From positions 195,537 through 259,536 of the forward strand of contig CAVZQM010000001.1 of NCBI GenBank assembly GCA_963777495.1: a stretch of DNA of 64,000 bases, read 5' to 3'. Positions within the stretch are counted from its first letter, which is position 1; each line of letters begins with the position of its first letter. A program made the position numbers and the translations under genes. This stretch comes from an uncultured Actinomycetes bacterium (GTDB taxonomy: Bacteria; Actinomycetota; UBA4738; HRBIN12). The notes under the pieces were generated by a model, which had not been told where the DNA came from, made no database searches, and saw only the letters and a program-made list of their open reading frames with translations. Below are positions 8,793-64,000 of the stretch, piece by piece.

Positions 8793-9737
8793 TCAGCCCG
8801 CGGCGGCGGCCGCGCGCTTCTCTTCGTACATCGTCGCGGTCGCATCCAGCATCGCGAGGTAGTTCATGATGCCCTCGCGTGCTTCCTTCGCTTCCTCCGT
8901 CAGATCCGTCAGCTGGTCGATCTTCCAGTGCTTGAACAACACGGGGAGGACGACCTGGTCGTGGTGGATGCGCAGGTCGTAGATGCCGGCCTTCGCCATC
9001 TGGATCGCCTTCGCCTTGAACTCGGGGATCTCGATGCCGGGCATCTGGAAGCCCACGACCTGCCGGTTGATCGCCAGCATCATGGCCGAGGGATCGATCT
9101 CGAGCGCGGCCTTCGCGAGCTCGCGGTAGAAGACGTAGTGGAGGTTCTCGTCGATCGCGATGCGCGCCGTGAGCTTCTCGATCAACGGGTCGTCCGTGTA
9201 TTGCCCGGTGTTGCGATGCGCGATCCGGGTCGCGAGCTCCTGGAGCGACGTATAGACCAGCCCGTCGAGGGGATCGGCGAAGAAGCCGCCCTGGCCGTCC
9301 GGGTAGTAGCCACGCGAGACGGTCTCCATCCGACCGCGCTCCAGTGCCACCGGGTCGAGGCCACGCGTCACGGTCAGGTAGTCCCGCAGCACGATCGCGT
9401 GGCGACCTTCTTCGGCCGTCCATCGGCGGACCCATTCGCCCCACACCCCGTCGCGACCGAACGTCTCCCAGAGCGCGAGGTGGTAGTAGGGGAGGTTGTC
9501 CTCGGTGAGGAGGTTGACCTCGAGCGAGACGCGAGAGATCTCACTCAGCTGACTGTCCGCCACCTCCCACGGTTCCTCGACGTAGTTCCGTCCCTTCTCG
9601 TACGGGACGTACTCGTGAGGGAACCACTCGGTGGCCTGGGACAGGTGCCGTTCGAGGCCCTTCTCCAGCGCAGGCTCGAGCTGCGTGAGCATGTCTGCAG
9701 GGGGTACGGCGGTGTCGGGTCGTCGTTGATCCAGCAT
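8793..9737 (-). CDS. desA: acyl-[ACP] desaturase (DesA1/DesA2-like di-iron stearoyl-ACP desaturase family)
   Basis: Di-iron ligand motifs (EENRH-like EEGRH, DENLH); start set at internal ATG 9737 with RBS GGAGGAA 4 nt upstream, matching the DesA1 N-terminus; the longer ORF has a TTG at 9824. Confidence 0.85.
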   Translation of the reverse strand: MLDQRRPDTAVPPADMLTQLEPALEKGLERHLSQATEWFPHEYVPYEKGRNYVEEPWEVADSQLSEISRVSLEVNLLTEDNLPYYHLALWETFGRDGVWGEWVRRWTAEEGRHAIVLRDYLTVTRGLDPVALERGRMETVSRGYYPDGQGGFFADPLDGLVYTSLQELATRIAHRNTGQYTDDPLIEKLTARIAIDENLHYVFYRELAKAALEIDPSAMMLAINRQVVGFQMPGIEIPEFKAKAIQMAKAGIYDLRIHHDQVVLPVLFKHWKIDQLTDLTEEAKEAREGIMNYLAMLDATATMYEEKRAAAAAG

Positions 9738-50403: not shown

Positions 50404-50932
50404 TCAGGCGGGCGCGCGGATCACGCGCGGCGCTCGCGGGAAGAACGACCTGCCACCACGCTCCTGCTTGCGGACGAGCTCGTTCGCGAAGATCCACTCG
50501 TGCTTGGGCAGCGGCTCGAGGCGCTCCACCTCGAAGAACGACTGCGGGCCCCCGCTCGTCGTCTCGTCGTCCTCGTCGTCCGGGTCGACATCGGGTATCG
50601 GTCTCGGCGGCGACCCGCCGTTCCTCGATCCACGTCGACGGCAGGAGGTCCGGCAGGTCGGGAGCCTCGGGTGCCACCCGCCGCGAGGAACGTGGCACGC
50701 CAGGTGACGGCCGGCACGGCGTCCTCGCCCGAGATCATCAGGAGGACGTCCATGCCGGCGGCCGCCACGTCGAGGTCGCCCGGGCTTCCGGCCGGGATGA
50801 CGACGCGGCCACTCCGGGCGCACACCGCGAGCGCGGCCTCCACGTGGCGCTGTGGGAGGCCGGCGAGCAGGACCCGCGCCTCGTGTTCCTCGTCATCCAT
50901 CCGACCCCCGATCATCCATGCGGGAGCGGCCA
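50404..50932 (-). CDS. hypothetical protein (frameshifted)
   Basis: Coding segments in three frames (MAAPAWMIGG…; …PEAPDLPDLLPSTWIEERR…; …SFFEVERLEPLPKHEWIFANELVRKQ…); no family recognised. Confidence 0.3.
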
Positions 50933-51054
50933 TCGTAGCGAAGAGGCTCTTGACCGGCGCCGAGGCATCCGTAGATTGTCGACAGTTCACAGCAGGAGGA
51001 CGGTCGACGCGTGCCGACGGTGCCGCGAGCCACCTGCGGAAGGGGGAAGCCGGG

Positions 51055-52558
51055 ATGGGTCGTGACGACGATTCGGCCGTGTACGCCGACGGGGAGGGCA
51101 GGCGCGGAGAGATCGACCGCCGCAGGTTCATCCGGATGGGGGTGGTCGGCACCGCGATGGCGAGCGCGATGCTGATGGACCGCGACCGCGAGGCGGGAGC
51201 GGCGGCGATGAAGCGCTCGACCGTCACCGGGGCTCCCCGCGCCGCCGGGCTGGTCGAAGCCGGGCCCGAGCTGGCGCTGCCGCCCGGGTTCAGCTACACG
51301 ACGTTCGGTGCGTTCGGATCGGCCATGACCGACGGGTTCATCACCCCGCCGATCCACGACGGCATGGCGGCGTTCGACATGGGTGACGGGACGCTGCGCA
51401 TCGTGCGCAACCACGAGCTCGGTGAGGGGAACGACGTCCCCGCCGGCACCGTGATCGGCGATCCGAAGACCGCGTACGACAAGAAGGCGCCGGGCGGAAC
51501 CGTCACGCTCGTGGTCGACGCCGCGACCGGGGAGCTGCGGTCCGACTGGATCAGCCTGAACGGGACCGACACGAACTGCGCCGGGATGCCGACGCCGTGG
51601 GGTACCTGGCTGACGTGTGAGGAGACGGTGGCCGGCGTGGACTCCGGACGGCTGAAGCCGCACGGCTACGTGTTCGAGGTGGATCCGTCCGCCGACGCGC
51701 CGACGAAGAGCAAGCCCTACAAGGCGATGGGGCGGTTCCTGCACGAGGCCGGCGCGGTCGATCCCGACACCGGCGTCGTCTACATGACCGAGGACGAGGG
51801 CCCGGACGGGTTCTACCGGTACCTCCCGAAGGATCCGGGCAACCTCGCGGCCGGCGGCACGCTCCAGATGCTCGCCGTCAAGGGCCAGCCGAGTACAACA
51901 CGATCGTCGGTCAGACGGTCGGCGACGTGCTGCCGGCGAACTGGGTCACGATCGACAACCCGGATCCCGGCCAACGCCGAAGACAACGCGTCCGCGGTGT
52001 TCCAGCAGGGTCGCGCCAAGGGCGCCGCGAAGTTCCTCGGAGGCGAGGGCGCGACGTTCCGCGACGGTGGCGTCGTCTTCGGCTCGTCCGACGGCGGCGA
52101 CGTCGGGACTCGGTCAGGTCTGGCAGTACACGCCGACGACCAACGTCGGGAAGAAGAACGAGGAGGGCGAGCTGGTCCTGTTGTTCGAGTCGACGGGTCC
52201 CGGCGTGCTCGACGGGCCGGACAACATGTGCACGAGTCCCGGCGGAGCGATCGTCATCGCCGAGGACGGCAACCTCAAGAGCAACTTCGTGCGTGCGTTG
52301 CTGCCCGACGGGAGCCTGATCACGGTCGCCGAGAACCTGGTGGGCGTGCAATGGCACTACATCGAGGCGTCGGGCAAGCTCTACGACCCGACGGTCCCCG
52401 ACGACGGTGCTTCCGCGGGCGACGGGATCGGTCACGCGGAGTTCGCAGGCCCCACGTTCAGCCCGGACGGGAAGTTCCTGTTCGTGAACATCCAGGTTCC
52501 CGGCATCACGTGCGCGATCACCGGCCCGTGGGCGAGCCTGGGCCTGCTGAGTCGATGA
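51055..52558 (+). CDS. phoX: PhoX-family (DUF839) phosphatase with Tat signal (frameshifted)
   Basis: RBS GAAGGGGGAAG; twin-arginine motif DRRRFIRMG; conserved …GYVFEVDP… and …DGPDNMCTSPGGAIVIAEDG… blocks; C-terminal part in a second frame. Confidence 0.7.
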
Positions 52559-53901
52559 CGGAGGACGTGCCCCGGATCGTCGCGACGCCGCCGGGCCCGA
52601 AGACACGGGAGATCCTCGCTCGTCAGGAGCGGGTGCTGTACCCGGGCCTCGCGCACGGTCTGGGGCCGTTCGTCATCAACCGCAAGTCCGGCTGGGAGAT
52701 CGAGGACGTCGACGGCAACGTCTACCTCGACTTCATCAGCGCGATGGCGTCGGTGCCGTTCGGCGCTGCGCGTCCCGACGTCGTGGAGCCGGTGATCGAG
52801 GCGCTCCGTCGCTACGGCAACGAGGACACGCACTACTACTCCAACGAGTACGTGCTGCCGCTCGCCGAGGAGCTGCTGCGCGTCGCGCCGGACGGACTCG
52901 ACGCGCGTCGACATCGCGCTGAACGGCACGGAGGCGGTCGAGACCGCCATCCGGTTCATGCGTCGCGCGACCGGTCGCCCGATCGTGATCGGGTTCATGG
53001 GCGGCTACCACGGCGAGACCGGCACCGCCGGGCGCGATCGGCGCGGAGACGTCCGATCTCTCGTTCGGCTACCGCGCGCTGATGTCCGGATTCGCCCACG
53101 TGCCCGTACCCGAACCCGTACCGAACCCCGTTCACCGCTCGTCCCGGCGGCACGGGCGACGGCACCGTCGACTACATCCGCGATCATCTCCTGCATCACG
53201 CGATCGATCCCCGCGAGGTCGCCGGCTTCGTGATCGAGCCGGTGCTCGGCAGCGGTGGCTGCGTGGCCCCTCCCGACGCGTTCTGGGCGGCGCTCGTCGA
53301 GCTCTGCCGGGAGTTCGACTTCCTCCTCTGCGCCGACGAGGTGAAGACCGGGTTCGGACGGACCGGTCACCTGTTCGCGGTCGAACGATGGGGCGTGCGG
53401 CCCGACCTGATGGCGCTCGGCAAGGCGATGGGCGGAGGCGTGATGCCGATCGGGGCGGTGCTCGGCACCGAGCGCGCCATGGGCTTCGACGATGTCTCGA
53501 CGGGCTCGACGTGGTCGTGGCTCCCGGCGGCCTGTGTGGCGGCGATCGAGACGCTCCGCGTCTTCCGCGAGGAGCCGCTCCTCGAGCACGTGCGCGAGCT
53601 GGACGCGGCTGCCCGGCGCGCGCTCGCGCCGCTGGCGGAGCGCTACGGAGCCATCGGGGACGTGCGCGTCACCGGTTGCTTCATCGCCATCGAGTTCGTG
53701 AAGGACCGTGTGACCAAGGAGCGGGACCTCGAGCTGATGGAACGGGTGGCATGGGGATGCATCCGGCGCGGGCTGCTCGCCGACGCGAGCACGACGTCGT
53801 TCAATCTCCAGCCGTCGCTCGTCACACCTGTCGACGTCCTGGAGCAGGGGATCGCGATCGTCGACGACGCGATCGCGGAAGCCGTCGGTTCGCCGGGATG
53901 A
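52555..53901 (+). CDS. class-III (PLP) aminotransferase (frameshifted)
   Basis: ATG overlaps the phoX TGA (ATGA); DEVKTGFGRTG and PLP-lysine motif LGKAMGGG; three frames. Confidence 0.8.
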
Positions 53902-53919
53902 TCGAGGGGTACCCGCGCG

Positions 53920-55068
53920 TCAGATGCCCACGGTGAACCGCGCGAGCACGGCCGCGTCGATCGCGCGTTCGTCCAGCTCCACCCCGAGCCCGGTGCCCTC
54001 GAGGGGTCCGACCGTCCCGTCGGCGTCCATCTCGAGCGGCGTCGTCACGCCCCACTCGAATTCCTCGGACGGCACCGCTCGTTCGAAGAAGCTGGTCCGG
54101 CAGAACGCGAGCATCACGTGGAGGTTCGCGGCCTGCACCGGCGTCTGGCCGTAGCTGGTCACCTCCACGTCCAGCCCGAACGCCTCCGCGACATCGAACA
54201 CCCGGAGCGCGGACGTGATGCCTCCCGCGAACGTCACGTCGAACCGCATCGCCGACCACGGCGGGTCTCGCATGATCTCCGTCATCAGACGGGGATCCCA
54301 GATCGCGTCGCCGGCCGGGATGATCGGGACGCGCCCGATCCGCACGAGCCGGCGGTACCCCTCCAGGTCGAGGTCGGGCAGCGGCGCCTCGAACCACCGG
54401 ACGCCGAGGTCTCCGAGCTCGCTCGCCATGCGTTCGGCGGCGTCGCGCTCCAAGCACCCTTCGGCGTCGTAGATCAACGCCATGTCGTCGTCCGCGCCGC
54501 GAGCGGCGCGGACGGCCTCGAGGTCGCGGTCCGGATCGCCCCAGGCGTGGATCTTCGCGGCGGTGTACCCCTCGGCGCGGCGGCGGACGACCTCGTCCGC
54601 ATAGGCCTCCGGGCGCCCGAGCGTGGGGAGCGAGGCATACGCCGGGAGTCGCTCCACGCCGCGGTGCTCGGGAGCGATCAGCCGGTGCAGCGGCAGGCCG
54701 GCGCGGTGGGCGGCCAGGTCCCACAGGGCGATGTCGATCGCGGAGCGGACACCCGGCATGTCGGGTGCGGTCCCGTGGTCACGGAGCTCGTCCCAGATGG
54801 CCCGCCGCTCCCGGGGGTCCCGGCCGATCACGCGGGGAGCGATCGTCCGGAGCGTCTCCAGCGGTGCCAGGTCGAACGCGCCGTAGCTGTCCGAATCGAA
54901 CTGGCCGAGGCCGGTGACCCCGTCGCCGTCTGTGACGCGCACCAGGGTGCTGGTCGTGAATGGAGCCGGAAGGTGGCTCGTGTACGCGTGACGGGGCAGG
55001 TCTGGACCGAGCGCCAGCACCTCGATGCGCTCGACCGGCGATCCGGGCTCCTCGGCTGCGTTTGTCAA
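53920..55068 (-). CDS. mandelate racemase / muconate lactonizing enzyme family (enolase superfamily) protein
   Basis: Intact 382-aa ORF (TTG start); capping domain plus TIM-barrel with KxK and metal-ligand Asp/Glu residues (…AAKIHAWG…ALIYDAEG…). Confidence 0.85.
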   Translation of the reverse strand: MTNAAEEPGSPVERIEVLALGPDLPRHAYTSHLPAPFTTSTLVRVTDGDGVTGLGQFDSDSYGAFDLAPLETLRTIAPRVIGRDPRERRAIWDELRDHGTAPDMPGVRSAIDIALWDLAAHRAGLPLHRLIAPEHRGVERLPAYASLPTLGRPEAYADEVVRRRAEGYTAAKIHAWGDPDRDLEAVRAARGADDDMALIYDAEGCLERDAAERMASELGDLGVRWFEAPLPDLDLEGYRRLVRIGRVPIIPAGDAIWDPRLMTEIMRDPPWSAMRFDVTFAGGITSALRVFDVAEAFGLDVEVTSYGQTPVQAANLHVMLAFCRTSFFERAVPSEEFEWGVTTPLEMDADGTVGPLEGTGLGVELDERAIDAAVLARFTVGI

Positions 55069-55085
55069 CGGTTAACTGTAGGCTA
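55062..55085. promoter_or_regulatory. candidate operator (AT-rich AACGGTTAACTGT) in the divergent MR/MLE and SMP-30 promoter region
   Basis: Its reverse complement ACAGTTAACCGTT matches ACAGTTTACAGTT upstream of the GntR gene at 11 of 13 positions; the only AT-rich island in the 55.07-55.39 kb intergenic region. Confidence 0.25.
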
Positions 55086-55168
55086 TCAAGCCGTCGATGG
55101 AATCCGTTCGCGATCTCGCTGTCCCTCCCGGCTCGGTCCTGCATCGAGAGGCCCCGATGCCGCTCGAC

Positions 55169-55393
55169 CTGGAACGGCGGCCCACCCCCAACGGTGGGCA
55201 CCATCTGCACGGCGACATGTCGCCGGACCAACCGCTGTTCCTGCGGCCGGTGCGCGGCGACGCGGACTACCGGACGCCGGTGTCGCGGTTGTATCTGTGG
55301 GGCGCGGGCACGCACCCGGGCGGGGGCGTGACCGGCGCCGACGGGCGCAACGGCGCGCGTGAGCTGCTCCGCGACGTCAGAGGGAGACGTTGA
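55169..55393 (+). pseudogene. 3' remnant of a CrtI-like oxidoreductase paralog
   Basis: Encodes …GGHHLHGDMSPDQPLFLRPVRGDADYRTPVSRLYLWGAGTHPGGGVTGADGRNGARELLRD…, about 70% identical to the C-terminus of the 48792-50386 gene; no N-terminal Rossmann domain; stop overlaps the SMP-30 ATG. Confidence 0.5.
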
Positions 55394-56241
55394 TGCTCGA
55401 CCGGTTCGACGAACTCGCCGAAGGGTTGAACCATCCGGAGGGCGTCACGTGGAACCCGTTCGACGGGTTGGTCTACGCGGGTGGAGAAGGAGGCGAGCTG
55501 TACGCGATCACGCTCGATGGCGAGGTCGAGCAACGCGGCGCCACCGGTGGTTCGATGCTGGGGCTCGCGGTGGACGGCGCGGGGCGCGTGTACGCCTGCG
55601 ATGCCGGCAACGGCGAGATCGTGCGGCTGGACCCGGCCTCGGGTGTGGTCGAGATCTACGGACGTGGCGTCGGGGGCGACGATCTCGACACGCCGAACGT
55701 CGCGGCGTTCGGTCCCGACGGGATGCTCTACGTGACGTGTTCCGGAGAGGACGATCGCCCCGAGATCGTCCGGATCGTGCCCGGTGCCGACGGCGATCGG
55801 CGGACCGAGCGCTGGAGCGCCGACGTGCCGCGGTACCCGAACGGGTGCGTGGTGACGACAGACGGTTCCGCGCTCATCGTCGTCGAGGCGAAGGCGGAGC
55901 GGGTCGTTCGCGTGCCGATCCTGCCGGACGGGGTTGCCGGCACCCCCGAGGTCATCGCCGACCTCCCCGACACGGATCCCGACGGGCTTGCGATCGCCGC
56001 GGACGGCGCGTACTGGGTGACGTTGTATCGTCCGGACGGCTTGTTGCGGATCGCGCCCGACGGCACCGTGGCTACGGTCGTCGACGACCACCTCGCGTCG
56101 ACGTTCGACGCGCCGACGAACATCGCCTGGGTCGGCCCGGCACTCGACCGAGTCGTCGTCGCGAACGTCGGCGACCGCTTCCTGTCGATCGGCGACGTCG
56201 GGGTGACCGGACTACCGCTCCATCATCCGGAGGTGCCGTGA
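55393..56241 (+). CDS. SMP-30/gluconolactonase/LRE family protein
   Basis: Intact ORF; six-bladed beta-propeller lactonase signatures (…EGVTWNP…, …PNGCVVTTDG…, …DGLAIAADG…). Confidence 0.85.
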   Translation: MLDRFDELAEGLNHPEGVTWNPFDGLVYAGGEGGELYAITLDGEVEQRGATGGSMLGLAVDGAGRVYACDAGNGEIVRLDPASGVVEIYGRGVGGDDLDTPNVAAFGPDGMLYVTCSGEDDRPEIVRIVPGADGDRRTERWSADVPRYPNGCVVTTDGSALIVVEAKAERVVRVPILPDGVAGTPEVIADLPDTDPDGLAIAADGAYWVTLYRPDGLLRIAPDGTVATVVDDHLASTFDAPTNIAWVGPALDRVVVANVGDRFLSIGDVGVTGLPLHHPEVP

Positions 56242-57060
56242 TGGCCCGCTACACCGACCGGAACGTGATCGTGACCGGAGGGGCTCAAGGCATCGGGCGC
56301 GGCATCGTCGAGGCGTTCCTCGCCGAGGGGGCGCACCGTCTTCGCCGCCGACATCCGCGCCGACGGGCTCGAGGGTATGCGCGCGGCGCAGGCCGAGCCC
56401 GATCGCGTGCGCACCCACGCCGTCGATCTCTCCGACTTCGAGGCCGCAAAGGCGATGGCGCGCGCTGCGATCGAGGAGCTCGGACACATCCACGTGCTGG
56501 TCAACTGCGCCGGGGTCATGCCCGGCGGCCCGCTGATCGACGTGTCGCGGGAGACGTTCGACCTGACGTTCGCGGTCAACGCCCGCGCGCCCATGGCCAC
56601 GATGCAGGTCGTGGCCGCCCACATGGCCGAACACGGAGGCGGCGCCATCGTGAACATCGCGTCGGCGAACGCGTTCAAGAACGAATCGCCCGAGGCGCCG
56701 TACAACGCGTCCAAGGCGGCGCTGGTCGCGCTCACCAAGGCGGCGGCCCACGAGTGGGGCCACCTCAACATCCGCGCCAACTGCGTCGCGCCGGGGCAGA
56801 CCACGACCCCGGAGGAAGAGATCGAGATCGCGTCCGATCCGGACGAGGCGCGTCTCCAACGCGACTACCTGATGCGGATCCCGCTGCGGCGGGCTGGGGC
56901 GCCGCACGATCAAGCAGCCGCGGTGTTGTTCCTGGCGTCCGACGAGGCCGCATGGATCAGTGGACAGACGTTGATCGTCGACGGCGGCGAGCTCGGCGGC
57001 GGCGATTGGTACGACCCGGCCGACGCGCCGCCCATCCCCGACGAGGGGCAGTCCTCGTGA
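56241..57060 (+). CDS. SDR family oxidoreductase (one frameshift)
   Basis: ATG overlaps the SMP-30 TGA (TGATG); TGGAQGIGRG cofactor motif, NASK…YNASKAA (YxxxK) catalytic motif; shift near 56330. Confidence 0.8.
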
Positions 57061-57073
57061 GCGCGGGACACCG

Positions 57074-58328
57074 ATGAGCGCAGCCACCGCTCCGGCTCCG
57101 GTCCTGGAGCTCGCCACGTTCCGCGTCGACGACGTCGTGGAGGGCCGAGCGACGTCGTGGCTGAACGGACGGCTGGAGCTCGACGTCGGAGCGCTCGCAG
57201 ACGCGGCGTCGGAGCCGGCGCTCGCCGACGTGCGGATCGACGTCGTCCGTCCGGGGGACCCGGTGCGGATCGCCAACGTCCTGGACGCGGTCCTGCCGGA
57301 CGTGAAGGCCGACGATCCGGACCGAACGTTCCCCGGTGCGCTCGGCTCGCTGACGATCGCCGGTCGCGGACGGACGAACCGGCTCGACGGCGTCGCCGTC
57401 CTCTCCGTCTGCGACTGGCTCGCCGCGGGCTACACGCAACCCGACGAGTTTCCGGACGCGCTCGTCGACATGGCGGGTCCGGGCGCGGAGGTGACGCGGT
57501 GGGGACGCACGATCGACGTCGTGGTCCGGTGCGTCCCGTCGGCCGGCGCGCCCATCGGGGACGTCGACCGTGCCGTGCGACGCGCGTCGCTCCGTGTCGC
57601 GCGCGATCTGGCCGCGGCGACGATCGATCGTGAGGCGAGCGAGGTCGCGACGCTGGAGCGTCCGCGCGCCGGCGTCGATCCCGCGCTCCCATCGGTCGGC
57701 GCGATCCTCCAGGTGGCGTCGGAAGGCCCGCTGACCGACACGTTCCTCTACGGCCGCGCGGTCGGCGGGATCGTGCCGACGCTGCTCGACGCGAACGAGG
57801 TGCTCGACGGGGCGCTCACGAACGGCGCCTACGACTGGGCGTCGGTTCGCAACGTGACCGCGAACTATCAGGATTCGTCGCTCGTCCGCACGCTCCTGGC
57901 CGGTCACGGCGAACGGCTGGCGGTTCGCCGGCTTGATCCTGGCGCTCGGCTACCTGGATACGCGCGTTCGAGAAGCAGCGGTCGGCCATGCTCTCCGCCC
58001 GCCTCGCCAGGTCGTTGGGCGCCGACGGCGTCGTGTGCACGACGTTCTCGTCGGGCAACTCGCACACCGACACGATGCTCACGGTGCGCGCGTGCGAATC
58101 GCTCGGCATCCGCACCACGGCCATCATCAGCGAGACGAACGGCGGGCTCACGGATCACGTCCCTGAGGCGGACGCCATCGTGAGCGTCGGCAACGAGGAC
58201 GAACTGATCGAACCCGTGGACGCCGGAGCGCGTGGTGGGTGCCGAGCGAGCCCGTGCGCGGCGGGCGAGCCGGTCCCGCTCTGGGCGTACCTGGGCGCGA
58301 CCGTGGCAGACGGGCGACATGGCGCTGA
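57074..58328 (+). CDS. grdE: glycine/sarcosine/betaine reductase component B alpha/beta proprotein (GrdE/PrdA family; frameshifted; 3' end approximate)
   Basis: DVVRPGDPVRIANVLDAVLPDVK region parallels ELARPGESVRIIPVKDVIEPRVK of clostridial GrdE; internal Cys-containing segment VVCTTFSSGNSH in a second frame; a +1-frame TGA at 58326-58328 is taken as the end. Confidence 0.65.
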
Positions 58329-58341
58329 CGGCGGTGCCGGC

Positions 58342-59635
58342 ATGACGGTCGTCCATTACCTCAACCAGTTCTTCGCCGGGCTGGGCGGCGAAGAGGCCGC
58401 GAGCCAGGAGCCGGTGCGGATCGAGGGCGCGGCCGGTCCCGGCCGGGGACTCGTGGCGGCCGGGCTCGAGATCGACGTGACGCTCGCGTGCGGCGACGAC
58501 CGGTTCGGTGAGCACGAGGCGGAGTCGCTCGCGCGTCTGCTGAGCGTGGCTGGACGAGATCCGGCCCGACGTCCTGGTGTGCGGTCCGTCGTTCGGATCC
58601 GGCCGTTACGGCTACGCGTGCGGTTCGCTCGCGCGCGAGGCGGGGAGGCGCGGCATCCCGGTCGTGTCCGGCATGACGCCCGACAGCCCCGGCGTGCTGG
58701 CGGCCGAAGGCGCCGCGTACATCGTCCCGACGGGGCCGAACGTCGCGAGCATGCGCACCGCGCTCCCCGTGATCGCGAGCCTCGCCGGCCGGCTGGCGAC
58801 GGGCGAGCCGGTCGGATCACCCGAGGACGAGGGATACCTGCCGCGCGGTCTCCGCACGAACGTTCACGCCGACAGGACGGGCGCGGAGCGCGCGCTCGAC
58901 CTGCTGCTGGCCAAGCTCGGCGGCGACGTCCGCTCCGAGGTCGTCCCGAGCGGCGACCGCGTGGCACCGCCTGCCGCGGTCACCGGATGTGGCGACGGCG
59001 ACGCCTCGCGCTGGTCACCGAGGCCGGCTGCGTCCCGCAGGGGAACCCCGACCGGCTGCCGACGCGGCACGCCAACGTGTGGCTGCGGTATCCGATCGAC
59101 GGCGTGGCGACGTTCGCCGCGGGCGCCTACGAGTCGGTGCACGCCGGGTTCGACACCACGGCCGCGAACGCCGACCCGAACCGGCTGGTGCCGCTCGACG
59201 CGGTGCGCGAGCTTGAGGCGGGAGGGCCGGATCGGTTCGTTGCACGACCGGTTCTACACGACGACCGGTGTCGACACGCCGGTCGCCACGTCGGCCAAGT
59301 TCGGGCGCGAGATCGCGGAGGAACTGCGGGATGCCGGGGTCCAGGCCGTCATCCTCACCGGAACCTGAGGCACAGGCACGCGTTGCGGGGCAACGCTTGC
59401 GAAGGAGATAGAGCGGATGGGGATCGCGACGGTGTTCGTCACGGCGCTCCCGACCATCGCGCAGATGGTCGGGGCGAACCGGGTGCTGCGTGGGGTGTCC
59501 ATCACCCATCCCACCGGGGACCCGTCCCTGTCCGTGGGTGATGAGCGCGCCCTTCGCCGCCGCGTCGTGGAGCGCGCCCTCGAGCTGCTCGCCACGGATG
59601 TCGGCCCGGGCACCGTGTGGGAGGTGCCGGCATGA
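58342..59635 (+). CDS. grdB: glycine/sarcosine/betaine reductase selenoprotein B (in-frame TGA = Sec at 59366-59368; internal frameshifts)
   Basis: GRDB-family N-terminus MTVVHYLNQFFAGLGGEE. The ORF track splits it into two ORFs, but TGA 59366-59368 is in frame with the downstream 72-aa ORF (59417-59635). The joined sequence reads …AVILTGT-U-GTGTRCGATLAKEIERMGIATVFVTALPTIAQMVGANRV…, where GrdB-type proteins carry U. A SECIS-like hairpin lies 12 nt downstream. Confidence 0.7.
59380..59396 (+). other. SECIS-like hairpin downstream of the grdB UGA
   Basis: GCGTTG-CGGGG-CAACGC: 6-bp perfect stem with G-rich apical loop, starting 12 nt after TGA 59366-59368. Confidence 0.4.
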
Positions 59636-60949
59636 CGGGCCGCGACGTCGCGATCACCGGCGCGTCGTTGACGTTGCAGCACGTTCCCGACCTGGTCCGG
59701 TACGGCTCGAAGCCGCGGCGCGAGCACGAGCGGCTCCCGCAGGTCGGTGACGCGCTGCGGAGCTTCAGCGACGCCGTCAGCTATCCGCCGAACCAGGTGT
59801 TCATCGGGAACGCGGACCCAGGCATCCTGCGGGAGCTGCCGCGTCCCTGGTGGCGAGATGCCCCTCCCGGGGACCCGCGCGGCGCCTTCGGCGACATCCT
59901 GGATCAGGCGACGTTCTACGAGCTCCTCGCCGAGCTCGACCAGTTCGAGCTCGTGCGCCTGAAGGAGGAGCCGCGTCCCGGCGAGCTGCCCGCTGTTCGA
60001 CGGCGCGGACGTCGTGGGCGCGTTCGCGGCGGCCCACGAGGCCGATGAGTCGCTGTCGGCGCACGTGCTCCTGGAGAACCTGGCGTGCAAGGCCGGCGCG
60101 GTGCACGCGACGCGGCACCTGCTGGCGGCGACCGGCGTCGACCCGGCGTCGATCCCGTACGTGATCGGCGCGGGGGAGGAGGCGATCGGCGACCGGTATC
60201 AGCGCGGCGGAGGCAACCTCGGCAAGGCGGTCGCCGAGGCGGCGGGACTCACCGAGGCGAGCGGCTGCGACATCAAGGCGTTCTGTGCGGCGCCGATCCA
60301 CGCGCTGGTGGTCGCCGGCGCGCTTGGTGTCGGCGGGCGTGTACGACCGGGTGGCGGTCGTCGCCGGCGGCGCGCTGGCCAAGCTCGGCATGAAGTTCGA
60401 GGGTGCGCTCGAGCACGACGATGCCGATCCTGGAGGACGTGCTCGCGAGCATGGCGATCCTCGTCGAGGCGGCGGCGAGATCGTGCGGGCCGGTGATCCG
60501 GATGGACGCGGTCGGGCGTCACCGCGTGGCGGCGGGAGTCGTCCCAGCAGGCGTTGCTGGAGGACATCGTCGGCGCGCCGCTCGCGGCGATGGGGCGAAC
60601 GATCGCCGACGTCGACGTCTACGCCACCGAGCTCCACAACCCGGAGATCACGGAGTCGTCGGGCGGAGGCGACGTCCCCGACCGGAACTACCGCATGCTC
60701 GCTGGGCTCGGCGTGGTGCGCGGCGATCTCACCAAGGAGGAGCTCCTCCCGTTCGTCCGTTCGCACGGGCTGCCGGGCTTCTCACCGACGCAGGGGCACA
60801 TCGCGTCGGCGATCCCGTGGCTTCCGCACGCGTTGCGGGCGTTCGAACGCGGCGATCTGCACACGACGATGTTGATGGCGAAGGGCAGCCTGTTCCTCGG
60901 CCGGATGACGCGGCTCTGGGACGGAGCTTCGATCACGTTGGAGGGATAG
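59632..60949 (+). CDS. grdC: glycine reductase complex component C-like protein (GrdC/GrdD family; frameshifted)
   Basis: ATG overlaps the grdB stop (ATGA); N-terminus …TLQHVPD…SFSDAVSYPPNQVFIGN… parallels GrdC; thiolase/KAS-like C-terminal part (…GHIASAIPWLPHA…) in two further frames. At 439 aa it may be a truncated GrdC or a GrdC/GrdD fusion. Confidence 0.6.
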
Positions 60950-61309
60950 ATGGCGACGGAAGCGACCGTGGAGACGTTCACCGAGCTGGTGAAGGAAGGG
61001 CACGTCCTGCTCGACGTCTGGGGACCGGACTGCGCCCCGTGTATGGCGATGATGCCGGCCGTCGAGGCCCTAGAGGACAAGTACGAGGGGCGCATCACGC
61101 TGCTCAAGCTGAACGCGCCGGAGAACCGACAGGTGTGCCGGGACATGCGCGTCGCCGGGCTTCCCACGTACATCACGCTCCGCGACGGCGGCGAGGTCGA
61201 ACGGGTTACCGGCAACGGCGCCACGATCGCCGACATCGAGGCCGCGATCGAGCGGCTCCTGGCCGGCGCACCGGTGACCGGGCTCCCGGTGCCGGAGCAC
61301 CTGCGGTAA
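60950..61309 (+). CDS. trxA: thioredoxin (CxxC = CAPC), grd-cluster associated
   Basis: Intact 119-aa ORF; RBS TGGAGGGA; WGPDCAPC active site; follows the grdC stop directly. Confidence 0.8.
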   Translation: MATEATVETFTELVKEGHVLLDVWGPDCAPCMAMMPAVEALEDKYEGRITLLKLNAPENRQVCRDMRVAGLPTYITLRDGGEVERVTGNGATIADIEAAIERLLAGAPVTGLPVPEHLR

Positions 61310-61357
61310 GGCCGGCAGCATCCTGCGATCTGAGTGAGGGAGGTGAGGACGGACGAG

Positions 61358-61816
61358 ATGGAACTCAAGGGCAAGAAGGTGATCGCGCTCGGCGAGCGAG
61401 ACAGCGTCCCCGGCGAAGCCATCGCCGCGGTGGCGCGGTCGGCGGGCGCCGAGGTGATCGAGACGCGCACGGAATGCTTCGTCTGAACCGCTTCCGGCGC
61501 CATGGATCCAGAGAACCAGGGGTTGATCAAGCGCATCGCCGACGAGCTCGGGACCACCGATCTCGTCGTGATCCTCGGAGCGGCCGACGCCGAAGCGGTC
61601 GAGGTCGCCGCGGAGACGGTGCGTGAAGGCGATCCCGCGTACGTGGGTCCGTTGGCCGGGGTCCAGTTGGGCCTCCCTGTGTGGCACATCTTCGAGGACG
61701 AAGTGAAAGACCAGGCCGATCCTGCGGTCTACGAGGAGCAGGTCGGGTTCTTCGAGCTGTCCTTCGACACCGAGAGCGTGAAGGAAGCGATGAAGCGGGC
61801 TCGGGGGGAGACGTGA
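61358..61816 (+). CDS. grdA: glycine/sarcosine/betaine reductase complex selenoprotein A (in-frame TGA = Sec at 61484-61486)
   Basis: RBS GAGGGAGGTGAGGA. Translation reads [54 protein letters not shown]…GDPAYVGPLAGVQLGLPVWHIFEDEVK…, closely matching clostridial GrdA (TECFVUTSAGAMD…; AGPLAGVQLGL). Without readthrough only a 42-aa peptide would result. Confidence 0.85.
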
Positions 61817-61930
61817 TCACCCTCCGCGCGGAAGAACCCACGGCTGCGCGGGCCCGCTCGCGGGGCTCGCACCTGCGGAGATGCCGATGGGACGCCGTTC
61901 CCGCCGCTCCCGGCCCCTTGCTTTGCCAGC

Positions 61931-61950
61931 GGTTGACAGTTTACAGTTCC
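61931..61950. promoter_or_regulatory. candidate promoter/operator upstream of the gntR-SBP-permease operon
   Basis: TTGACA (-35-like) at 61933-61938 overlapping tandem ACAGTT-T-ACAGTT; AT-rich island 65 nt upstream of the GntR start. Confidence 0.3.
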
Positions 61951-62015
61951 CCGTGAGCCCCAGGAACATGGGTTCGGACGAGGCGAGCCGGAGGGTTCGC
62001 CGGGAGGAGGGGTCG

Positions 62016-62723
62016 ATGAGCGAGACCACCAGCGCAGCCACGTTGCGGCCCCTCGACGCGCCTCGGTCCTTGGCCGAGGACGCGGCCGACCGGATCCGTG
62101 AGCAGATCCTGGCGGGCGGCTTCGCGCAAGGGGAGCATCTGGTGGAGGCGCGGATCGCGGAGCAGCTGAACGTCAGCCGCGGTCCCGTCCGCGAGGCGTT
62201 CAAGCTCCTGCGATCCGAGGGACTCCTGTTGGAGGAGCCGCGCCGAGGCACGTTCGTCGTGAGCCTCTCCGCCGACGACGTCCGGGAGATCTACAGCCTC
62301 CGGGCGGCGATCGAAGGCCGGGCGGCCCGGTTGCTCGCCGCCAAGCAGGACGTGGCTGCGGTCGCCGAACTGCGCGGGCTGCTTTCCTCGATCGAAGCCG
62401 CGGCCGCCGCGGGCGACGTCGCCGCCGTGTACCGGCAGGACCTGGCCTTCCACGACGCGGTGTGCCGGCTCTCGGGCAACGCGCGGCTGCACGAGGTCTT
62501 CGCGCGCTACGTGCCCATGTTGCGGGCGCTGCTGCACGTGGACGAACGCATGCAGGACTCGCTCGCCGCCGTCGCGGAACAGCACCGACCCATCGTCGAT
62601 GCCATCGACGCCGGCGACGTCCAGGGCGCCATGACGCACACCGAGCATCACTGCGATCAAGCCGGAGAGCTGATCGCGGCGTACCTCGACTCGCTACCGG
62701 AACGCAACGAGGAGGAACGATGA
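62016..62723 (+). CDS. GntR family transcriptional regulator (FadR/FCD subfamily)
   Basis: Start at ATG 62016 with RBS GGGAGGAGGGG; wHTH (…AEDAADRIREQILAGGFAQGEHLVEARIAEQLNVSRGPVREAF…); FCD effector-binding domain. Confidence 0.85.
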   Translation: MSETTSAATLRPLDAPRSLAEDAADRIREQILAGGFAQGEHLVEARIAEQLNVSRGPVREAFKLLRSEGLLLEEPRRGTFVVSLSADDVREIYSLRAAIEGRAARLLAAKQDVAAVAELRGLLSSIEAAAAAGDVAAVYRQDLAFHDAVCRLSGNARLHEVFARYVPMLRALLHVDERMQDSLAAVAEQHRPIVDAIDAGDVQGAMTHTEHHCDQAGELIAAYLDSLPERNEEER

Positions 62724-63832
62724 CGAGCCGTCGGATCCGGGGTTTCGCGCTGCTGGTGTCGGTGTTCGCACTCATGGCCGCCGGCTGTTCGTCCGGCGAT
62801 CCGGAAGACGGCGACAGTAACACCGCCACTCCCTCCGGCGCGGGGTCCGTCACCCCGTCGGGCACGCTTCGGCTCTTCTCCTATAGCGATGGCTTCGACC
62901 CCGCGTACATGGAGTCGTTCTACGAGGAGTACCCCGACATCGATCTCGAGACGGCGTCGTTCGGCAGCAACGACGAAGCCGTCGCGAAGCTCCAGGCCGG
63001 ATTCCAGGCGGACGTGATCAATAGCTGTGTCGACGAAGCCACGCTCGAGATGGTGAACAAGGGTCTCTATGCGCCGCTCGATGTCTCGCGTCTGGAGAAC
63101 TGGGACGACATCTGGCCGTCGATGAAGGCGCTTCCGGGGGTCCAGGTCGACGGCGAGGTCTACCTCGTACCTGCCGACGCGGGCACGGCGGGGATCCTGT
63201 ACAACGCGGACGTCGTGACGACACCCCCCACGTCGTGGCTCGATCTGTTCGATCCTCAGTGGGCCGGGAGGGCTTCCATCGAAGACCTCTCCGTCACCGC
63301 GATCGACATCGGAGCGTTGGTGAACGGGATCTCCGATCCGTTGACCATGTCCTCGGATCAGCTCGAACTGGTCAAGAACTACCTGATCGATCACCGCGAT
63401 CAGTTCCGGACGTTCTGGAAGGGTGCGGCCGACATCAAGTCGCAGTTCAAGTCCGGCGAGGTCGTGATCGCGTCCGGCTATCCCGACTACGCCAAGCAGC
63501 TTCGCCGGGAAGGTGTCAACGCGCAGTTCGCCGTCGCCGAGGAAGGCCAGATGCTGTGGACGTGCGGCTACGGCATCAGTCCGGATGCGGAGAACCTCGA
63601 TGCTGCCTACGCGTTGCTCAACTGGTATTCGAGCGTGCCGCCGCAGGTCTACGCGGCGACGGAATTCGACTACATCACGTCGAACATGACCGTGGGCGAC
63701 CTGCTGACCCCGGAGGCGATCGCGAACTCCGGTCTCGACACGTTCGGTCAGGCGACCAACGCGATCCCGGCGAGTCCCCCCAACGATCGCGAGGCCTGGG
63801 TCGCGGCATGGACCGAGGTGAAGGCCTCCTAG
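62720..63832 (+). CDS. ABC transporter substrate-binding lipoprotein (PotD/spermidine-putrescine-like, SBP family 1)
   Basis: ATG overlaps the gntR stop (ATGA); lipobox LMAAGCSS; intact 370-aa periplasmic-binding-protein fold. Confidence 0.85.
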   Translation: MTSRRIRGFALLVSVFALMAAGCSSGDPEDGDSNTATPSGAGSVTPSGTLRLFSYSDGFDPAYMESFYEEYPDIDLETASFGSNDEAVAKLQAGFQADVINSCVDEATLEMVNKGLYAPLDVSRLENWDDIWPSMKALPGVQVDGEVYLVPADAGTAGILYNADVVTTPPTSWLDLFDPQWAGRASIEDLSVTAIDIGALVNGISDPLTMSSDQLELVKNYLIDHRDQFRTFWKGAADIKSQFKSGEVVIASGYPDYAKQLRREGVNAQFAVAEEGQMLWTCGYGISPDAENLDAAYALLNWYSSVPPQVYAATEFDYITSNMTVGDLLTPEAIANSGLDTFGQATNAIPASPPNDREAWVAAWTEVKAS

Positions 63833-64000
63833 TGGCACAGGTCGCGCACCCGATCGGTCTGGACACCGCGGGGTCGGCGGTACCCGTTTCCATCCGGATC
63901 CATCGTGCCCTCAACCGCTGGGGATGGCGCGGTTTCCTCGGGATCGTGTTCCTGACGCTGTTCGGACCGCTCGCGATCCTCGTGGCGTTCTCGTTCAACG
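63833..64000 (+). CDS. ABC transporter permease (PotB-like), 5' partial at window end
   Basis: GTG directly after the SBP stop; hydrophobic N-terminal helix (…FLGIVFLTLFGPLAILVAFSFN); runs off the window. Confidence 0.5.

Follow-up and report, generated by a model that had tools for sequence, protein, structure and literature searches.

We analysed a window of 64,000 nucleotides, the whole stretch of DNA under study, from an uncultured actinomycete and found that, judged by its sequence, the gene at 61358-61816 is a true member of the GrdA family, encoding the approximately 16-kDa selenoprotein A of a Grd-type reductase. The UGA at its codon 43 is very probably read as selenocysteine (Sec) through SelB, which a downstream hairpin would recruit. 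A Sec-TGA at this place is ordinary for the GrdA family, and the gene is a textbook case in this regard; the operon around it merits more attention than the Sec codon itself. The elements of the gene and of its immediate upstream neighbour are as follows:

60950-61309, plus strand: trxA, thioredoxin (Pfam Thioredoxin, 61.9 bits), the probable reductant of oxidised GrdA
61345-61349, plus strand: Shine-Dalgarno sequence GAGGA, read directly, 8 nt before the grdA ATG
61358-61816, plus strand: grdA, selenoprotein A of the glycine/sarcosine/betaine-type reductase complex, 152 codons, with its own stop TGA at 61814-61816
61484-61486, plus strand: Sec-UGA of grdA (U43), TGA at the aligned codon in all loci compared, with purifying selection on both sides

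Translation of grdA met a single internal stop, the TGA at codon 43; the protein includes GPLAGVQLGLPV, carries VGPLAGVQLGLPV further along and ends in RARGET*. With U written as C, the product matched Pfam GRDA (PF04723) over positions 1-147 of the 147-position model at 197.6 bits (cut-off 22) and the NCBIfam equivalog for selenoprotein A (NF040748) at 200.8 bits (cut-off 130). These full-length matches, together with the TGA in 71 of 71 loci described below, bear out the preliminary description of a grdA with TGA at codon 43. The redox motif CxxU is present as C40-F-V-U43, its U coming from the in-frame UGA, and the C-terminal block GPLAGVQLGL is kept, so the GrdA likeness previously noticed in these two regions holds as well. 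GrdA has been listed among the CxxU selenoproteins (PMC13188914), and in the GrdA of C. sticklandii Sec is residue 44 of 158 (PMC3091704), the same CxxU place as U43 here. The product was 58% identical to a canonical GrdA from a Clostridia MAG and 79-95% identical to copies from actinomycete MAGs. PDB sequence searches returned no solved relative for GrdA or for the GrdB-like protein.

Like canonical GrdA, the window copy is co-located with trxA, grdB, grdE and grdC. It differs in coming from an uncultured actinomycete of about 70% GC, probably from soil, in reading TASG where canonical motifs read TAAG or TSAG, and in a weaker hairpin after the UGA, which has a 10-nt loop at clade level. The operon also departs from the canonical one, with grdA last in the gene order, after trxA, and with no glycine riboswitch, grdD or trxB nearby. 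The ribosome-binding site and the upstream trxA that had been taken as signs of expression were both confirmed: in addition to the GAGGA, a second purine-rich run, GGGAGG, lies at 61338-61343, and trxA ends 48 nt before grdA starts, a neighbourship kept in all clade loci. A scan for promoters and terminators around grdA found none.

We then assessed how well the Sec codon is conserved. Among 5.8 billion proteins searched, 1838 relatives of the grdA product were found, and the closest of these were mostly 104-residue fragments starting at the Met after the TGA, which we attribute to gene callers stopping at the Sec codon. At the DNA level, 25 genome loci and 48 metagenome loci were compared, and the motif region was readable in 71. 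The Sec codon was TGA in every one of the 71, across at least five phyla; 36 belong to the uncultured Actinomycetes/Actinomycetota clade and are 73-95% identical, and the others come from Clostridia, Symbiobacteriaceae, Treponema, Dehalococcoidales, Anaerolineales and other Chloroflexota. The preliminary description had named Cys at this codon in the closest homologues as a reason for doubt. The comparison showed the opposite, with TGA in all homologues of 73-95% identity and Cys at the Sec position only in those at or below 66% identity to the window protein.

The median dN/dS of grdA against 30 clade relatives was 0.14 for codons 1-42 and 0.18 for codons 44-150, and such low values on both flanks indicate that both parts are translated in one conserved frame. 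A near-identical contig (L001) contained no frame-changing indel or substitution within trxA-grdA. The TGA in all 71 loci, the agreement with L001 and the dN/dS values together show that the TGA is neither a chance occurrence nor a sequencing error. At the level of sequence, these comparisons demonstrate translation through the TGA, and the residue inserted at codon 43 would be Sec.

If the TGA were a true stop, the gene would yield a 42-residue peptide and a separate 104-residue protein from the ATG at 61502, in keeping with the 104-residue fragments that form most database entries and with L001, which was called as 42 + 104 residues. But no Shine-Dalgarno sequence precedes 61502, Met49 is an internal conserved residue of a GRDA profile that runs continuously across the TGA, and the catalytic residue would be lost. 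The roughly 30 clade genes compared moreover all keep the frame relation, as do 25 genome-locus translations, with an upstream dN/dS of about 0.14, and we regard a true stop as very improbable. Reading through the TGA has a practical value for annotation, as gene callers split grdA into 42- and 104-residue pieces, as in L001. A variant genetic code was also considered and rejected, because TGA serves as the ordinary stop of both grdA and grdB, which makes this a local recoding. Searches for selA, selB and selD (tblastn with E. coli SelA, SelB and SelD) and for tRNA-Sec (ARAGORN) came back empty, both for the 64-kb window and for the flanks of the clade loci.

To identify the element that could recruit SelB, we considered the RNA downstream of the UGA, where one hairpin was found:

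61495-61525, plus strand: candidate grdA SECIS hairpin, stem 61495-61505 / 61516-61525 with bulged A61502, conserved core 61499-61521

With the U of UGA numbered as position 1, the hairpin occupies positions 12-42 and pairs C12-C15 with G39-G42, C17-C18 with G36-G37, U20-G22 with C33-A35 and U24-C25 with G30-A31, leaving A19 bulged. Its apical loop CAGA (61509-61512) is specific to the window and contains the clade-invariant G61511. The 47-nt segment holding the hairpin had an MFE of -11.7 kcal/mol, and against dinucleotide shuffles the z-scores ranged from 0.06 to -1.2, which is not significant. Among 29 distinct clade sequences, 88.9% of the cells of stem 13-22/33-41 were paired, compared with 21-47% in slid-partner controls. 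Covariation within the actinomycete clade was essentially nil (29 sequences), and four of the nine pairs never varied. Synonymous-site entropy was 0.98 bits at codons 44-56 and 0.84 elsewhere, indicating no constraint around the hairpin, and when synonymous codons were resampled from clade codon usage, a fraction of 0.44-0.62 of the recodings on average equalled or exceeded the stability of the real hairpin. Since the hairpin is no more stable than such recodings, it is accounted for by the conserved peptide GAMDP(E/D)NQ(A/G)L in a high-GC genome.

RNAalifold gave no convincing consensus for the segments after the UGA (-1.8 kcal/mol for 29 actinomycete and -0.5 kcal/mol for 27 other sequences), and explicitly named hairpins were tested in its place. 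Rfam at gathering thresholds reported no SECIS in the window; a permissive scan left grdA unmatched and found only the grdB element, no family matched grdA in 12 loci including canonical ones, and no Rfam family covers any grdA SECIS. The hairpin is thus compatible with a SECIS and gives permissive support, not independent evidence. The preliminary description had been unable to fold a convincing SECIS by eye: a hairpin does fold here, yet it is weak and has no independent statistical support within the clade, so that the caution expressed was justified.

In other phyla we found a stronger hairpin, UUGACC-NGGAN-GGUCAA, at columns 20-36, in the same register as that of the window. It showed compensatory changes in 8 cells, a number reached by none of 500 shuffles. 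G28 is invariant and lies in the loop of the hairpin in all groups, which fits the rule that a bacterial SECIS (bSECIS) has a guanosine in the apical loop (PMC1088965). The matching register and this invariant loop G28 raise the odds of a grdA SECIS, and the hairpin may act as one. Reviews point out that the bSECIS model fails to cover some genuine selenoprotein genes (PMC9312934).

Sec decoding in this lineage finds its strongest support in the predicted SECIS of the grdB-like gene next to grdA. The gene and its elements are the following:

58342-59635, plus strand: grdB-like gene, selenoprotein B (substrate-specific component B), frame broken in the window by four single-base insertions
59366-59368, plus strand: Sec-UGA of the grdB-like gene, in ILTGT-U-GTGTRCG (UxxGxxC)
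59369-59406, plus strand: grdB SECIS, stem 59380-59386 / 59390-59396 with loop GGG at 59387-59389

All 21 copies recovered from the actinomycete clade, the one in the window and those of 20 loci, kept the grdB-like TGA, as did 6 copies from other phyla. The element following it filled all 38 positions of Rfam SECIS_4 (RF01990, model 1-38/38) at 33.2 bits (E = 4e-5 in a 2.4-kb search), and the canonical grdB of L017 and L018 scored 55-57 bits with the same model. It resembles SECIS_4 in its 6-7 bp stem and G-rich triloop, and differs from it in scoring under the gathering score of 38 and in having the loop GGG rather than GGU. Its fold, GCGUUGC-GGG-GCAACGC, had z = -2.4. Across 24 distinct sequences the 7-bp stem was 97.6% paired with 11 compensatory cells, a result matched by 0 of 500 shuffles. 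One compensatory change lies inside the actinomycete clade, where CGU...ACG became CGC...GUG (U-A to C-G); a synonymous Arg swap was matched by a Thr-to-Val replacement that restored the pair. By these measures the grdB SECIS is functional-looking.

This neighbouring element bears on whether a near-cognate standard tRNA (Trp, Cys or Arg), and not the Sec machinery, might read the grdA UGA. Such a reading would fit a grdA hairpin that has no independent support and a window in which the Sec machinery was not found, and the existence of natural Cys-GrdA homologues suggests that a thiol version may be workable. However, the adjoining grdB UGA has a SECIS with compensatory changes inside the clade, and 71 of 71 loci, though deeply diverged, retain TGA, not TGC or TGG. 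Unprogrammed read-through would also be too inefficient for a carrier protein needed in stoichiometric amounts. We therefore give near-cognate decoding hardly any credence and retain decoding of the UGA as Sec.

Two further genes complete the operon of the window:

57074-58345, plus strand: grdE-like component B subunit (Pfam Gly_reductase), frame broken in the window
59632-60949, plus strand: grdC, component C beta subunit, frame broken by five single-base insertions and one deletion relative to L001

The order grdE'-grdB'-grdC-trxA-grdA was kept in about 25 clade loci. The intact grdC of L001 scored 519.6 bits on NF040746 (cut-off 450), and the grdC of the window was recovered as four tblastn pieces. 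For trxA, the best NCBIfam match was clostridial TrxA at 85.6 bits, below the cut-off of that model.

The broken frames were examined against L001 (ENA ERZ25039494 contig_35016), the closest public contig, which is 97.7% identical over 13 kb. In the wider region 50963-63400, 62 indels set the two apart, nearly all of them one base long, and trxA and grdA were free of them. Such a pattern could mean that the operon is decaying in this genome, with real frameshifts and with grdA as a not-yet-degraded remnant that lacks a functional complex; about 15 extra bases relative to L001 between 57917 and 60541 break all three partner genes (grdE, grdB and grdC), and the GC3 phase flips repeatedly across them. 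Yet indels in both directions also hit neighbouring non-grd genes, among them those of the PhoX region, and L001 in its turn is faulty in grdE (L001 6679) and in the GntR gene (L001 11436), at places where the window reads intact. With coding DNA 97.7% identical, indels and substitutions occur at about 1:4, and the record naming of L001 (contig_NNNNN) and of the MFD MAG contigs points to long-read assembly. The clade loci examined by tblastn had grdC in a single piece in all cases and grdE in a single piece in most, with the grdB Sec motif conserved. Decay is accordingly improbable in our assessment, and the frameshifts in grdE, grdB and grdC are most likely errors of long-read assembly. The window as a whole looks like an unpolished long-read assembly; GC3 phase flips are unusually frequent at 24-40 kb as well.

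We next considered which class of reductase the operon might encode. The clean grdB-like copy of L002 scored 414.8 bits on the broad subfamily model TIGR01918 (cut-off 65.45), and the gene product fell below the cut-offs of the equivalogs for glycine GrdB (TIGR01917, 391.5 bits against 602.2), sarcosine (408.1 against 800) and betaine (GrdH, 368.8 against 775). All clade copies carried the motif UxxGxxC instead of UxxCxxC (GT-U-GTGTRCG and ST-U-GTCTRCG, respectively). In the E-like subunit, the pyruvoyl site SGN|CVSACDKN of canonical GrdE was replaced by NGAYDW in the window and 17 clade loci, and by AGAYDW, SGAYDW or NGTYDW in three others; the pyruvoyl-forming Cys was thus absent from the window and from all 20 alignable clade loci, apart from one frameshifted, unreadable stretch in L005. 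Glycine is probably not the substrate, since a pyruvoyl group cannot arise in this subunit. GrdI and FarE likewise have no pyruvoyl-forming Cys, and their substrates form no Schiff base (PMC10838667).

No grdD was detected by tblastn in the 64-kb window at E<=10 or within about 7 kb in any clade locus. It adjoins grdC in the canonical loci L017, L018 and L044 (Clostridia and Symbiobacteriaceae operons), and was found only beside such operons. The GrdD-less order grdE'-grdB'-grdC-trxA-grdA is common to two phyla, occurring in the actinomycete clade and in the Chloroflexota loci L019, L025 and L050. For trxB, tblastn gave only a 50-residue FAD-motif match, and none lay near the operon. The actinomycete loci contained no glycine riboswitch and have a GntR/FCD regulator instead; tandem glycine riboswitch aptamers were seen at L017:2354-2556 and L018:2603-2823, upstream of the canonical trxB-trxA-grdE-grdA-grdB-grdC-grdD.

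The marks of glycine reductase sensu stricto (EC 1.21.4.2), namely the Asn-Cys site of GrdE, a TIGR01917 match with UxxCxxC, and GrdC together with GrdD, were not found here. GrdA, for its part, is encoded with a GrdB/GrdE-type component B, component C and thioredoxin in the window and about 25 relatives. On its predicted products, the complex would not be classed as a glycine reductase, though grdA is a true family member. The betaine (GrdH/GrdI) and fluoroacetate (FarB/FarE) reductases resemble it in an E-like subunit without the self-cleavage Cys, in a B subunit that is a selenoprotein and in the use of GrdA and component C, and FarB likewise departs from UxxCxxC. The window proteins differ from them in a B subunit far below the GrdH cut-off given above, in an E-like subunit that reaches only 57.5 bits on FarE (cut-off 675), in the one Cys retained by the B subunit (UxxGxxC), and in a transporter that is of polyamine type (PotA-like) and not OpuD or BCCT. 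The GrdE-like (57074-58345) and GrdB-like proteins form a distinct component-B subfamily, with clade members in L001-L016, L030, L036, L037, L065 and L069.

The operon around grdA is plausibly a novel Grd reductase variant. With its non-pyruvoyl E-like subunit, UxxGxxC B subunit and lack of an adjacent GrdD, grdA might even serve an uncharacterised class of Grd-type selenoenzymes that reductively cleaves something other than glycine, sarcosine, betaine or fluoroacetate, a proposal that we put forward only tentatively and hold to be the less likely case. In the literature searched, neither Grd operons in Actinomycetota nor operons without GrdD were described. A conserved Grd-like operon with two selenoproteins occurs in uncultured actinomycetes of about 70% GC, mostly from soil and sediment metagenomes, with substrate-binding subunits that fail every substrate-specific family test. 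It suggests that reductive cleavage dependent on selenium extends beyond the classical anaerobic fermenters of amino acids.

The results above show the identity of the gene, a conserved Sec codon and the operon partnership; the mechanism proposed here is modelled on the established Grd scheme. Sec-tRNA(Sec) and SelB would decode the grdA UGA as Sec, with SelB recruited by the mRNA hairpin, which starts about 11 nt after the UGA. Component B, made up of the GrdE-like subunit and the selenoprotein GrdB-like subunit, would cleave its substrate, probably one other than glycine, and load a carboxymethyl group onto Sec43 of GrdA, forming a selenoether. Cys40 would then resolve the selenoether to an Se-S bond, and the C2 unit would move to component C (GrdC) and leave as acetyl phosphate. 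The co-transcribed thioredoxin would finally re-reduce GrdA.

The genes on either side of the operon may hint at the substrate. The first two features below were taken from L001 gene calls with Pfam and mapped to the window:

55393-56241, plus strand: SGL (SMP-30/gluconolactonase-like) gene
56241-57060, plus strand: SDR gene, directly upstream of the grdE-like gene
62016-62723, plus strand: GntR/FCD-family regulator (Pfam GntR and FCD), downstream of grdA
62720-63832, plus strand: solute-binding protein of a polyamine-type ABC transporter (Pfam SBP_bac_8/1/6), with a permease gene from 63832

SGL and SDR lie upstream of the grdE-like gene in L001, L002, L014 and L037 and elsewhere nearby in other clade loci. 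In most clade loci a GntR/FCD gene follows grdA within a few kb, in some cases in the opposite orientation or with SGL, SDR and MR_MLE in between. The solute-binding protein showed weak similarity to PotD/PotF/YdcS, and a PotA-type ATPase is present in relatives. Class-III aminotransferases, MR_MLE (enolase superfamily), the PotA-type ATPase and a tartronate-semialdehyde-reductase-like gene recur as grd neighbours in rearranged order. Around the grd genes they form a conserved catabolic island (window 62016-64000; L012, L015, L016) of a PotA/PotD-type ABC transporter, two class-III aminotransferases, a tartronate-semialdehyde-reductase-like dehydrogenase, an enolase-superfamily enzyme, SDR and SGL. 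On the tentative reading of an uncharacterised Grd class, the island would be GntR-regulated, with a polyamine-type ABC transporter and omega-aminotransferases. The GntR regulator came closest to a phosphonate-utilisation regulator model, below its cut-off. A PhoX-type alkaline phosphatase gene (51136-51948), located directly upstream of the island, is fragmented by indels, and a mechanical 860-residue ORF at 50500-53082 merges PhoX and aminotransferase matches. Elsewhere in the window, 9343-9410 on the plus strand matched Rfam ASdes, a mycobacterial antisense-to-desaturase sRNA, at 48 bits (gathering score 40), a match probably explained by conserved desaturase-coding DNA in an actinomycete.

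GrdA variants at the Sec position were also encountered. A natural Cys form occurs at L077:531-533 (ENA ERZ27257219 k141_778062), with TGC in TECFV-C-TAAGAMD, and in the proteins P0001, P0005 and P0009. The Cys forms are 63-66% identical to the window GrdA, and the L077 contig is high in GC, with trxA directly upstream in an ATGA overlap. Papers of 2005-2006 described GrdA as having no known Cys homologues (PMC1088965, PMC1794560); the Cys forms contradict these older statements and bear on why the family retains Sec. The database entries P0013, P0057, P0073 and P0111 have Gly or Trp at the Sec position, and the Trp probably arose when a gene caller applied genetic code 4 to a TGA.
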